Origin: an uncultured Thermoleophilia bacterium
GTDB lineage: Bacteria > Actinomycetota > Thermoleophilia > UBA2241
DNA length: 64,000 nt
Reading direction: 5' to 3'
Assembly: GCA_963702475.1 (NCBI GenBank)
Contig: CAVPCT010000004.1
Coordinates: 320,001-384,000 of the forward strand
Shown here: positions 5,306-9,313 of the stretch, piece by piece
Layout: each line of letters opens with the position of its first letter
Position numbering within the stretch: the stretch's first letter is position 1
The notes under the pieces: model-generated
The model's input: only the letters and a program-made list of their open reading frames with translations
Told to the model about the DNA's origin: nothing
The model's database searches: none
Position numbers and translations under genes: made by a program

Positions 5306-6079
5306 GTGAGTCAGTCCGCCTTGCGCAGAGCGCGCGTCCTGGTGCTGCTCAAGCTCACGTGGCTGGAGATCAAGCTGCTCGCGCGAGAACCGGTCACCCT
5401 GCTCTTCTCGTTCCTCTTCCCGATCCTGGTGCTCGTGCTGCTGGGGGGCATCTTCGGGGCCGAGCGCATGGATGAAGGCTCGTTCGCGGGCATCAAGATG
5501 ATGGACTGGTACGTGCCCGCGTACATCGGGCTGGTGATCGCCTCCATCGGAACGGTCTCACTGCCCGTGCACCTGGCGTCGTACCGGGAGAAGGGCGTCC
5601 TGCGTCGCTTCCGCGCGAGCGGTGTATCGGAGGCGGCTCTGCTGGGGTCCCAGCTGCTGGTGAGCCTGGGGGTGGCTCTCATCGGCGCCCTCATCATCAC
5701 CGTCGTCGGCATGGCTGCCTACGACGCCAGGGTGCCGGCGTCGCCCGGCGAGGTGGCGCTCGCCTACGTGGTCGGGATGTTCTGCTTCGCGGCCATCGGC
5801 GTGCTCCTCGCCTCGCTCGCGCCGACGGCCCGGGCCGCGCAGTCGATCGGCCTGCTTCTGTGGTTCGTCCTCCTGTTCGTCTCGGGAACGTCCGCTCCAC
5901 TCGACCGCCTGCCCGACTGGATGGTGACCGTGGGCAAGGCGCTGCCGCTGTACCACGTGGTGCTGACGCTGGTGGACCCCTGGGTGGGGCGCGGGACGAA
6001 CTGGGTACAGCTGGCGCTGGTTGCGGCCGTCGGTCTGGCGGCCACCTTGGTCAGCCTGCGGTTCTTCCGCTGGGACTAG
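5306..6079 (+). CDS. ABC-2 exporter permease
   Basis: About six hydrophobic segments, YREKGVLRR, FFRWD end; follows the ATPase. Confidence 0.88.
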   Translation: MSQSALRRARVLVLLKLTWLEIKLLAREPVTLLFSFLFPILVLVLLGGIFGAERMDEGSFAGIKMMDWYVPAYIGLVIASIGTVSLPVHLASYREKGVLRRFRASGVSEAALLGSQLLVSLGVALIGALIITVVGMAAYDARVPASPGEVALAYVVGMFCFAAIGVLLASLAPTARAAQSIGLLLWFVLLFVSGTSAPLDRLPDWMVTVGKALPLYHVVLTLVDPWVGRGTNWVQLALVAAVGLAATLVSLRFFRWD

Positions 6080-6083
6080 AGCG

Positions 6084-6719
6084 TCACAGCTCCTGAAGGA
6101 CCCCGAAGAGGCGCTGCTTGACGGCCGCCTGGATGCGCCGCAGCGCCGGGTCGCCGTACAACCACACCTGGCCGACCGGGTCGGCGCTGGTCACGATACT
6201 GCCGCCGCCCTCGGCGGGCACGACGGCAATGGGCACGAGCAGCGCCACGGGAGCCCGCGGGTCGAGCTCGAACGACTTCACGATCGCGGCCGGCGCGCCC
6301 ACGTGCAGAAGGACGTACTCGTCGGGCAGCCGCGCGTCGAGCTGCGGGCCCGCAAGGCGCGAGACGATGGTGAACTCCTTGTCCAGCAGCAACTCGGCCA
6401 GACGCGCCAGAGCCGTGCGCGGCGGCACCGACAGGGCTCTGGAGCGCCGCCAGGCGCCCATGGCTGCATGCTTGTCCGCGTCGTCCGGTCGCGGGTAGGT
6501 CGTCCGCAGGTACTCGAGGGCGTCGTCTGGGTCGGTGTGGACCTTGTCGCCGTCCTGCAGCACGGGGACGCCAGTCTGCCCCGAGACGGCGACCACCTCC
6601 GGTCGCTGCTCGCGGTCGGCGGCGACGTTGACGGCCGTGTAAGTGAGGCCCAACTCGGTCATGAGCTGGCGGATGCGATGCGAGTCGGGGCACCACTCGG
6701 TCTCGTACAGCGTGAGCAT
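6084..6719 (-). CDS. glutaredoxin-like (CPDS) plus DUF302-like fusion protein
   Basis: N-terminal YETEWCPDS...SGQTGVPVL thioredoxin-fold motifs; C-terminal DUF302-like pattern (YVLL..P...DP..ALLVPIAV...G.SIV...DP). Confidence 0.7.
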   Translation of the reverse strand: MLTLYETEWCPDSHRIRQLMTELGLTYTAVNVAADREQRPEVVAVSGQTGVPVLQDGDKVHTDPDDALEYLRTTYPRPDDADKHAAMGAWRRSRALSVPPRTALARLAELLLDKEFTIVSRLAGPQLDARLPDEYVLLHVGAPAAIVKSFELDPRAPVALLVPIAVVPAEGGGSIVTSADPVGQVWLYGDPALRRIQAAVKQRLFGVLQEL

Positions 6720-6725
6720 GGGCCG

Positions 6726-7361
6726 TCAGAGCTCCTTGAGCGCGTCGGCGAGGCGCTTCTTGGCCAGGTGCTGCGCCTTGCGCAGGGGCGGCGCGCCGTA
6801 CAGCCAGACCTGGCCGACTGGGTCGGCCGCCGACACCGTGCTGCCGCCGTCGCCGGCGGGGACGACGGCGACCGCGATGAGCAGAGCCCCCGGCGCCAGC
6901 GGGTCGGCCGCGTACGCAGCTGCGGCCGCTTCCGGGAGCGCGACGGAGAGATGCACGTAGTCGTCCGGCAGGCCGGCGTCTATTCCGGTCCCGCGTGTCT
7001 CGGCGACGACGGTGAGGCCCTTCTCCGCCAGCTCGGCGTGAAGTCGTGCGAGCGCGTCCGCGGGAGCGAGGTCGAGCGTGCGTGACAGGCGCCACGCCCC
7101 GCGGCGCACGTGCTCCGGGGCGTCGGCCGGCTCCGGATACGTGGTCCTGAGATACGGGATGATCTCGTTCGCGCCGACATAGGCGTGCCCGTCGTCTTCG
7201 AGCACGGGCACGCCGCTCTGGCCGGAGACGGCCACGACGTCCGGCCGGTCCTCGCGGTCGGCGGCGACGTTGACCGTGTCGTAGGTGAGGCCGAGCTCGG
7301 TCATGGTCTGGCGCACGGTGTGACAGTCCGGGCACCATTCCAGTTGGTAGAACCTGATCAT
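6726..7361 (-). CDS. glutaredoxin-like (CPDC) plus DUF302-like fusion protein, tandem paralogue
   Basis: MIRFYQLEWCPDC...SGQSGVPVL; same 211-aa length as its neighbour; AAGGAG RBS upstream. Confidence 0.72.
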   Translation of the reverse strand: MIRFYQLEWCPDCHTVRQTMTELGLTYDTVNVAADREDRPDVVAVSGQSGVPVLEDDGHAYVGANEIIPYLRTTYPEPADAPEHVRRGAWRLSRTLDLAPADALARLHAELAEKGLTVVAETRGTGIDAGLPDDYVHLSVALPEAAAAAYAADPLAPGALLIAVAVVPAGDGGSTVSAADPVGQVWLYGAPPLRKAQHLAKKRLADALKEL

Positions 7362-7398
7362 CTGTCCCGACTCCTTGCGGGTGGATGGTGAAAGGTGG

Positions 7399-7416
7399 GC
7401 GGCGCGACCGCGCCGC
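7399..7416 (-). promoter_or_regulatory. candidate bacterial SECIS element
   Basis: Minus strand GCGGCGC-GGTC-GCGCCGC, with the stem starting 12 nt after the UGA. Confidence 0.62.
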
Positions 7417-7419
7417 GGG

Positions 7420-7629
7420 TCAGCAGCCTCAGCCGTAGCCGGTGCGCTGGACGGGCGCACCGCAGTTGGGATCGGAGAGCGGTCCGTTGCGCAGGTAGCT
7501 GCCGAACGACTGCTTGATCTCCTTGCTCTCACACTCCGGGCACTGCTTCTGCTGCGGTTTGACGGCGCCGCGGGTGACGAGCTGCCACTTGTGCCCGCAG
7601 CCTTGGCAGTGCAGGTCGAGAACGGCCAT
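7420..7629 (-). CDS. FmdB-family zinc-ribbon protein, probable selenoprotein (UGA at 7431-7429 read as Sec; ends at 7429 if not recoded)
   Basis: CQGC...CPEC zinc ribbon; C-terminus GYG-TGA-GGC-TGC-TGA followed by a SECIS-like hairpin. Confidence 0.7.
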
Positions 7630-7826
7630 CAGGATACCCCCACCTTGTCCGGGACCCAGGAGAATACGCGACACACCTGTGCACAGGCGCGGCACTCAGT
7701 GCAGAGCTCCTCGTCGATGCGCGGAGCGGAGTAGATGTCAGGTTGCACGATGGCTCCTTCGGGGCAGTACCGCACGGCGGGGCACGGGTGGTTCTGGGGG
7801 CAGGCCTGTGCGTTGACCTCGATCAT
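7629..7826 (-). CDS. small 4Fe-4S ferredoxin
   Basis: CPQNHPCPAVRYCP and CTECRACAQVC; TGATG coupling to the zinc-ribbon gene. Confidence 0.85.
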   Translation of the reverse strand: MIEVNAQACPQNHPCPAVRYCPEGAIVQPDIYSAPRIDEELCTECRACAQVCRVFSWVPDKVGVS

Positions 7827-8161
7827 GCGATCTTCTCCTCGTGGTTCTCCAGGATGTGGGCCTTGTCTGCCGCCTCGCGGCCGACGATCTCGTCGATGAG
7901 CTGGCAGGCCTGCGAGAGGCGCTTGTCGACGACCTCCCACAGCACGCGTCCGTCCCGGCGCGAGCGCCGGACGAGGCCCTCGCGCTGCAGCACGGAGAGA
8001 TGCTGTGAGACGTTGGGGCGGCTGACCTCCAGCTCATCGGCCAGGTCGCTCGGGGTGCGAGGCTCGTCGCACAGAAGATGCATGAGCTCGTGGCGCGTGG
8101 GGTTGGCGAGCGCGGCGAACACGGCCGCGTGGATCTCGTAGCGTTGGCGGTCTGCGGTCAT
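7823..8161 (-). CDS. ArsR/SmtB family transcriptional repressor
   Basis: FAALANPTR, VSQHLSVLQREGLV helix-turn-helix; ATGA overlap with the ferredoxin. Confidence 0.9.
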   Translation of the reverse strand: MTADRQRYEIHAAVFAALANPTRHELMHLLCDEPRTPSDLADELEVSRPNVSQHLSVLQREGLVRRSRRDGRVLWEVVDKRLSQACQLIDEIVGREAADKAHILENHEEKIA

Positions 8162-8272
8162 AGCGGTAGTATTGCCCGAGTTTCGAAATTTCGCAACATG
8201 GCAATCCATGGAGCAGTGAATGGGCCGGCTCACAGCGAGGCCGGTCGTGGACCGAAGCCGGAGGCGCGAACG

Positions 8273-8692
8273 ATGGCGGACATGAGCATCTACTTCCCTG
8301 GCGGCAAGCGTGTGTACGCCGACTACGGCGGCTTCACGATAGAGACCGACCAGCCGACGCGGGGCGGCGGTGACGGGTCCGCGCCGGCGCCCTTCGACCT
8401 GTTCCTCGCCTCCATCGGCACCTGCGCCGGTATCTTCGCTTTGGGCTTCATGCAGCAGCGCGGCATCGACCCCACCGGATCGGGCATCGCCCTGAGCGTG
8501 CACTTCGATGCGGAGAAGGGTCTGATCGGCGAGATCGACATCGAACTGACGCTGCCGCCCGAGTTCCCCGAGAAGTACAGGGGGGCCATCGTGAACGCCA
8601 TGGAGCTGTGCAGCGTGAAGAAGCACCTGCACGATCCGCCGGAGTTCAAGGTGACGGCCGTCGCCAACGAGACGGCCGGTGCGACGAGCTGA
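8273..8692 (+). CDS. OsmC-like protein
   Basis: TDQP..GGG.GSAPAPFDLFLASIGTC and CSVKKHL. Confidence 0.85.
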   Translation: MADMSIYFPGGKRVYADYGGFTIETDQPTRGGGDGSAPAPFDLFLASIGTCAGIFALGFMQQRGIDPTGSGIALSVHFDAEKGLIGEIDIELTLPPEFPEKYRGAIVNAMELCSVKKHLHDPPEFKVTAVANETAGATS

Positions 8693-8725
8693 CCCGCGGT
8701 GATGACGGACTGTGGAGATGATGTG

Positions 8726-9313
8726 ATGGCAGAGGCGTTCCAGGCGGGTCACGGGGGCAAGCTGTCGGCTCCGGAGCGGCTCAGGGCCCTGCCGCAGGCC
8801 GATGTCGTCCGCTTCCTGCGGCTGGACGGCGACGAGACCGTGGTCGACTACGGCGCCGGCACCGGCGTGTACACCGAGGCGGTCGCGGAGGCGCTGCCGC
8901 AGGGTCTGGTGATCGCCGTCGAGGCGCTGCCGGAGCTGGCCGAGCAACTGCGCGCCAAGCTCGATGAGAGTCTGCTCCAGCGCGTGAACGTCGTGGTGAC
9001 CGCCGACAACCACGTTCCCGTGGAGGACGGTTGCGCCGACCGCGTGGTCATGGTCGACGTCCTCCACCACCTCTACGACCAGCCCGGCGCTCTGGACGAG
9101 GCCGCCCGGCTGCTGCGCCCCGGTGGCCTGTTCGTGGTGATCGACTGGGGCGTCAAAGAACGGCCGGTCGGACCGCCGCTCGGACATGTCCTCGGGCTCG
9201 AGGCGGTCAGGTCGATCGCACGGGACATGGGCCTGGAAGAGGTCGAGTCGCACGACCAGGGCGACGGTCTCTGCTGCCACGTGGTGCTCGTGGCGCGGAA
9301 GCCCGCCGCTTGA
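8726..9313 (+). CDS. class I SAM-dependent methyltransferase
   Basis: VVDYGAGTG motif I, LHH, RLLRPGG, IDW..GPP. Confidence 0.85.
   Translation: MAEAFQAGHGGKLSAPERLRALPQADVVRFLRLDGDETVVDYGAGTGVYTEAVAEALPQGLVIAVEALPELAEQLRAKLDESLLQRVNVVVTADNHVPVEDGCADRVVMVDVLHHLYDQPGALDEAARLLRPGGLFVVIDWGVKERPVGPPLGHVLGLEAVRSIARDMGLEEVESHDQGDGLCCHVVLVARKPAA

Follow-up and report, generated by a model that had tools for sequence, protein, structure and literature searches.

A small gene on the minus strand of the window, by which the whole analysed stretch of 64,000 nucleotides is meant, raises the question of whether its first in-frame UGA ends the protein or encodes selenocysteine (Sec). The open reading frame starts with the ATG at 7629, and its first in-frame stop is the TGA at 7431-7429. 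From the Tyr-Gly codons on, the minus strand reads GGC TAC GGC TGA (7431-7429) GGC TGC TGA (7422-7420) CCC. With the first TGA read as Sec, the coding sequence would cover 7629-7420 on the minus strand (69 residues plus stop) and the translation would end with ...TGYG-U-G-C (Tyr-Gly-Sec-Gly-Cys). As a whole, it is very probable that the gene encodes a zinc-ribbon protein with a UGA-encoded Sec residue and a SECIS element behind the stop codon.

The zinc ribbon and its C-terminal tail

FmdB models were the best match of the product in both profile libraries, yet the scores remained below the curated cut-offs (TIGR02605, 28.4 bits, cut-off 31.3; PF09723, 31.8 bits, cut-off 34.4), and the product was therefore filed as FmdB-like. 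In the profile search, the FmdB cut-off is attained by the two paralogues that share this tail. Profiles, alignment and an AlphaFold model delimited a zinc-ribbon domain comprising residues 1-43 (7629-7501, minus strand), in which two CxxC knuckles with the spacing of the FmdB family (Cys8, Cys11, Cys30 and Cys33) presumably bind zinc. AlphaFold predicted three strands over these residues (pLDDT about 66-76) and a low-confidence tail (pLDDT <50). The whole model is weak (pLDDT 62, pTM 0.40), and a Foldseek search of the PDB with it yielded generic zinc ribbons only, none of them at an E-value up to 0.001. The NCBIfam selenoprotein and star models did not match the extended protein at E-values up to 10.

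Within the tail, the UGA at 7431-7429 is predicted to encode Sec67. The locus set used for comparison comprised 59 loci, with three cut or frameshifted matches set aside, and 58 rows, 49 of which were distinct. All 49 distinct loci possess the arrangement G-TGA-GGN followed by a stop within two codons. The glycine codon behind the UGA is GGC in 41 loci, GGG in four, GGT in two and GGA in two, while the next codon is TGA in 23, TGC in 17, CGC in eight and TGG in one, corresponding to the tail endings U-G, U-G-C, U-G-R and U-G-W, respectively. In the extension Gly68-Cys69 (7428-7423), Gly is thus conserved and Cys optional. The preliminary description had seen a redox motif in the ending U-G-C, but this ending is not conserved, as it occurs in only 17 of the 49 loci, and a Cys follows Sec in only 23 of 89 tail-type loci. 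The closest relatives (76-77% identical) end with U-G-R, and the tail label changes at least ten times on a tree that has few columns and unsettled bootstrap values. A conserved terminal Cys was rejected on the basis of the ending counts and the label changes.

A tail cysteine besides the zinc ligands was detected in all 89 tail-type loci, upstream of Sec only in 66, on both sides in 21 and downstream only in two. The upstream residue (87 of 89 loci, the remaining two having a Cys after Sec) mostly precedes Sec by 5-11 residues; at two loci the distance is 22 or 27 residues, and the tail Cys may be incidental there. In the window protein this residue is Cys56 (7464-7462), which is invariant in 15 of 15 proteins and the likely partner of Sec67.

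Homology past Sec is confined to one or two residues. The truncation by gene callers that had been foreseen is apparent in the protein databases, which hold only 66-residue forms for the cluster (8/8 members). Among 124 short representatives, 42 end aromatic-G/T/S/R like the truncated form, as judged from protein sequences only, and a pattern search of the same 124 revealed no Cys form, indicating that such forms are rare. Nevertheless, Cys at the Sec position does exist. The proteins P0015, P0017 and P0018, which belong to one cluster and end with F-S-C, nest beside the window protein in the tree, on a long branch, and are known as protein only. When a genomic copy of P0015 was sought in 301 genomes of the class, the best match was the window gene, and a Cys ending was found neither at four newly read loci nor in 20 fetched regions.

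The hairpin behind the stop codon

The putative SECIS element is a hairpin (GCGGCGC-GGTC-GCGCCGC, 7416-7399, minus strand) lying wholly behind the second UGA. Its 7-bp stem begins 12 nt and its GGUC loop (7409-7406) 19 nt after the first UGA, so that the layout given in the preliminary description is confirmed in the sequence. The centroid contains no structure other than this hairpin, whose folding energy is not unusual (z = 0.25, with 120 of 200 shuffles folding equally well) and was discarded as uninformative. Generic criteria for bacterial SECIS elements, as given in PMC13188914, are a loop of 3-9, a stem of 4-16, a G in the first two loop positions, a distance of 16-37 nt and at most -7.5 kcal/mol. 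The hairpin lies within these ranges, having a loop of 4 nt, a stem of 7 bp, a G at loop position 1 followed by G/U, a spacing of 19 nt and -14.2 kcal/mol. The model applied was our own implementation, not bSECISearch, and is permissive at 70% GC. It passed 571 of 2337 TGA gene-like ends (24%) compared to 121 of 566 TAG/TAA ends (21%) and failed to recognize the selD hairpin of the same genome. On account of the similar pass rates and the missed selD hairpin, the generic model was dropped as stand-alone evidence. Since it passes so many ends in a genome with 70% GC, a hairpin after a UGA means little by itself.

What exceeds chance is the exact hairpin element. The 18-nt hairpin has three exact copies in the 4.3-Mb genome, each 10-14 nt downstream of the terminal TGA-GG of an FmdB paralogue, namely the window gene and the genes at C1:213775 and C5:484329, both on the minus strand. 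The latter two end with FG-U-G and HG-U-G. The other six PF09723 matches of the genome are devoid of the 18-nt hairpin. A genome repeat was considered and rejected, as all three exact copies are situated behind UGA codons of FmdB genes; near copies number seven at one mismatch and 57 at two. A strict family pattern, fitted after the fact to the FmdB-tail family, matched 6 of 2337 TGA ends, with the fdhA Sec codon among the six, and none of 566 TAG/TAA ends. The window gene is absent from the six listed ends and passed the pattern on direct test.

In the locus alignment, 96.6% of the stem cells are paired and ten double changes are distributed over three pairs. None of 500 shuffles scored as high for cells and four of 500 did so for pairs, while slid controls were 16-69% paired. 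The covarying pairs are few, most of the changes affect the outermost stem pair, and the counts are inflated by the relatedness of the sequences. When more distant loci were included, the full arrangement was found at 81 of 92 distinct loci: the UGA is followed by no more than three codons and a stop, and then by a hairpin with its loop beginning at 17-22 nt. The other 11 are seven or eight family members failing the contiguous-stem test and four loci with Cys-rich tails. In other families the stem sequence differs while the GU of the loop is kept. The named relatives are assemblies of Thermoleophilia and other Actinomycetota. By contrast, in control FmdB subfamilies (the top PF09723 loci of the phylum; 30 loci, 27 readable, row L058 stemming from a genome flagged unpublished) TGA ends the gene in 19 of 27 cases and is never followed by Gly.

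Selenocysteine machinery and the reading of the two UGA codons

The preliminary description had proposed fdhF-like, SECIS-directed readthrough and named the sel genes, a conserved TGA, covariation in the hairpin and Cys homologues as tests. All of them came out in favour of Sec: the machinery exists, the UGA is conserved together with a synonymously varying Gly codon, the 7-bp stem covaries, and a Cys form is known. Genes for SelD (with an in-frame TGA of its own), SelA and SelB were detected above cut-off in one cluster (C3:145461-150506) of the genome, which is 93.8% complete, and a tRNA-Sec (68.3 bits) at C3:167171. In the wider comparison, selA occurred in 47 of the 52 genomes that contain a subfamily match, versus 92 of 110 genomes in the same two families; since selA is common anyway, this co-occurrence is a weak test. 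The five subfamily-match genomes lacking a selA match (G257, G034, G292, G338 and G439) are 66-92% complete. Three other selA-less genomes (G037, G052 and G047; 97-99% complete) contain homologues with Cys-rich tails and no UGA-hairpin unit. Among the results that speak against the Sec reading, the element is present in the genomes G004, G011, G016, G022 and G034 while selB and selD were not found above cut-off. For G004, G011 and G034, assembly gaps are suggested because these genomes harbor a TGA-containing FdhA and G034, in addition, a tRNA-Sec. This FdhA test covered G004, G011, G022 and G034; G016 is 64% complete. In G022 (90% complete), a search for selA, selB, selD, a true tRNA-Sec and an above-cut-off FdhA gave no result, although its locus L136 (G022:C6:221200-222800) reads FG-TGA-G-stop with a full hairpin, and an assembly gap is probably the reason here as well.

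Two further observations concern the genome at large. A tRNA-Pyl (CUA) is located at C3:641046-641118 and a PylS C-terminal domain above cut-off at C3:657647-658372, which suggests that pyrrolysine is encoded in this organism in addition to selenocysteine. Matches to the formate dehydrogenase alpha model number 59, on the contigs C2, C3, C4, C5 and C9, which implies many molybdopterin oxidoreductases.

Two other readings of the UGA codons have to be weighed. The first UGA might be a plain stop and the hairpin a U-less terminator or an RNA-stability element, since TGA closes most gene-like ends in this genome (2339 of 2905), the fold of the hairpin is of no exceptional stability, and a few incomplete genomes carry the element with no detectable sel genes. 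U-less terminators are common in Actinomycetota. As the relatives belong to this phylum, the original argument that a hairpin with no U-tract is not a terminator is weak on its own. A plain stop leaves unexplained why the TGA is invariant, why the Gly codon varies synonymously, why a second stop follows within one to three codons and why the loop with its invariant GU is kept at 17-22 nt; nor does it account for the Cys form or for the element having been lost from selA-less genomes. Moreover, the FdhA genes of G004, G011 and G034 and the tRNA-Sec of G034 point to gaps rather than to genuine absence of the sel genes. A plain stop at this position is thus very improbable. Still less probable is the recoding of both UGA codons, which would extend the window protein to U-G-C-U and the short forms to U-G-U. 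The second stop is indeed TGA in 73 of 81 loci, and the alternation of TGA and TGC at codon +2 resembles a Sec/Cys pair. However, CGC and TGG also occur at this codon, and TAG or TAA replaces the second TGA in 8 of 81 loci. The second UGA (7422-7420) is 10 nt away from the SECIS loop, 9-14 nt across the family, which is below the model minimum of 16 nt, and readthrough would continue for 447 codons through the glutaredoxin genes in an alternative frame. The second UGA is therefore the predicted true stop.

Judged from the established SelB/SECIS mechanism, insertion of Sec at the first UGA is highly likely. SelB loaded with Sec-tRNA would bind the hairpin that starts 12 nt past the first UGA and is capped by GGUC, Sec would be inserted at residue 67, and the ribosome would add Gly and Cys before terminating at the second UGA, which would not be recoded because it is too close to the hairpin. 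Because the SECIS element lies behind the stop, it is free of coding constraint and, as a consequence, nearly identical across the paralogues. The recoding mechanism as such is the ordinary, standard bacterial one.

Operon, possible function and known selenoproteins

The zinc-ribbon gene belongs to a gene order arsR, ferredoxin, zinc-ribbon gene with overlapping stop and start codons. An ArsR/SmtB regulator gene (7823-8161, minus strand; NF033788, 69.7 bits, cut-off 55) heads the operon and is followed by a small 4Fe-4S ferredoxin-like gene (7629-7826, minus strand; PF00037 above cut-off), whose stop overlaps the start of the selenoprotein gene (TGATG). Upstream, an imperfect palindrome (8171-8205), the core of which is present in 14 of 31 loci scanned, separates arsR from a divergent OsmC-like gene (8273-8692, plus strand; PF02566) and is probably the ArsR operator. 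The OsmC-like gene is followed by a methyltransferase gene (8699-9313, plus strand; PF08241). Over 88 neighbourhood loci, which are partly redundant and of limited length, ferredoxin was found in 66, ArsR in 64, OsmC in 49, the methyltransferase in 35 and glutaredoxins in two. The two glutaredoxin-domain genes downstream (6084-7361, minus strand; PF00462), one with CPDC (6726-7361) and one with CPDS (6084-6719), are thus not conserved as members of the operon. Each encodes 211 amino acids with a C-terminal region that has no Pfam match, and both are also present in locus L086. Downstream genes vary across the loci; an MFS transporter recurs and a cysteine-dioxygenase-like cupin is frequent (PF05995 in 3/3 tested, nine more alike by eye). 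A promoter and terminator scan of 5900-8400 gave no sites. A 171-nt contig of one metatranscriptome library is identical to 7412-7582, and 7037-7673 is covered, with seven differences, by another contig, whose run type is unrecorded. As contigs do not show transcription, the metatranscriptome match is a hint only.

Concerning function, it is conceivable that the zinc ribbon serves as a scaffold or docking module, whereas the flexible tail would pair Sec with the tail cysteine (Cys56 here, with Cys69 optional) to form a selenol/thiol redox pair. This tail might act with the coupled ferredoxin in an ArsR-controlled operon for thiol or sulfur stress. Drawn from motif and neighbourhood, this proposal has about an even chance of being correct. 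Alternatively, Sec may be inserted all the same, so that the reading of the UGA is unaffected, but the tail would bind a soft metal or metalloid as a sensor or chaperone and have no redox role. This would match the metalloregulator at the head of the operon, selenium-independent homologues with Cys-rich tails such as CCxxxC, and the neighbouring methyltransferase, which has a weak similarity, below cut-off, to ArsM models. On the other hand, one Sec and one Cys at a variable spacing make a poor fixed site, the neighbours are mostly of thiol or sulfur redox types, and no metal exporter recurs among the downstream genes scanned. Metal binding by the tail is possible, yet on the unlikely side.

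Selenoproteins of the FmdB family have been described before. In PMC2398784, two of them were predicted from Global Ocean Sampling reads by UGA and a bacterial SECIS element. The published Sec form is listed as TIGR02605 UxxU in PMC13188914 and as U/CxxU in PMC9312934. The window protein shares with them the zinc-ribbon family and a UGA with a predicted bacterial SECIS. They differ in that the two published proteins of PMC2398784 have their Sec residues at positions 8 and 11, within the first zinc knuckle, and a tail of another type, while the window protein has four Cys knuckle residues and its predicted Sec two positions before the last residue, on a flexible tail. By its predicted sequence, the window protein is outside the published group and is a different, uncatalogued variant. 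The FmdB of PMC11227280 is an unrelated formylmethanofuran dehydrogenase subunit. C-terminal Sec has precedents in SaoC (Cys-Sec-COOH), KCU-star and UXX-star (bioRxiv 10.1101/2022.07.06.499078; PMC13188914), which likewise have Sec at or next to the C-terminus and SECIS behind the stop and are truncated in databases; unlike them, the window protein has a different fold and motif. Our literature search, with the BSepDB family table and Haft and Tolstoy 2025 (mSystems) outside its scope, found no description of C-terminal Sec in FmdB proteins. The 2026 inventory (PMC13188914, Table 1, 119 entries), which cites Haft and Tolstoy 2025, has no such entry, the UxxU form being the only one of the family in it, so that a selenoprotein subfamily absent from it would be added and the uncharacterised FmdB family would be given an active site open to testing, together with a conserved operon. 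With Sec at the extreme C-terminus, little downstream homology and few Cys homologues, such proteins probably escape standard searches.

The predicted SECIS element agrees with the E. coli fdhF-type consensus in that loop, stem and spacing are within the model, and the genome's own fdhA element has a GGUC apical sequence, too. The E. coli fdhF SECIS contains a bulged U. Unlike it, the element of the window lies in untranslated sequence behind the stop and lacks the bulged U. The C-terminal tail of thioredoxin reductase is Gly-Cys-Sec-Gly. Sec-Gly on a flexible C-terminal tail is common to both proteins by analogy only, as the window protein has no Cys directly before Sec and is not a flavoprotein.

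A unit of UGA-GGN-stop and SECIS exists in the three FmdB paralogues and apparently also in an unrelated, secreted-looking protein at C5:782243. One may speculate that UGA-GGN-(NNN)-stop with a 3'-untranslated SECIS is a portable cassette which gives unrelated small proteins a C-terminal Sec, although we regard this as rather improbable. Selenium supply would then switch between a selenol-bearing and a plain form, since the fold does not depend on the two or three residues lost, and a sizeable class of selenoproteins would be hidden from searches for Sec/Cys pairs.

The secreted-looking protein (C5:781820-782251, plus strand, of genome G000; L155:821-1252) comprises about 141 amino acids with a signal-peptide-like start. 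Its gene ends with FTPKYS-TGA-GGA-CCC-TGA and a 7-bp GGTC hairpin, and the product is a candidate C-terminal selenoprotein, likewise uncatalogued. In 4/4 close orthologues the TGA is again followed by two codons and a stop, with a comparable hairpin, while five more distant paralogues end with NYN-TGA and have no hairpin. Locus L169 ends with GGT-TGA-G-stop and a hairpin. Finally, a gene-like end at C5:915414 (plus strand) has TGA-GGA, a 6-bp GGTC hairpin at 18 nt and a frame open beyond; this TGA is possibly an internal Sec codon or a product of chance.
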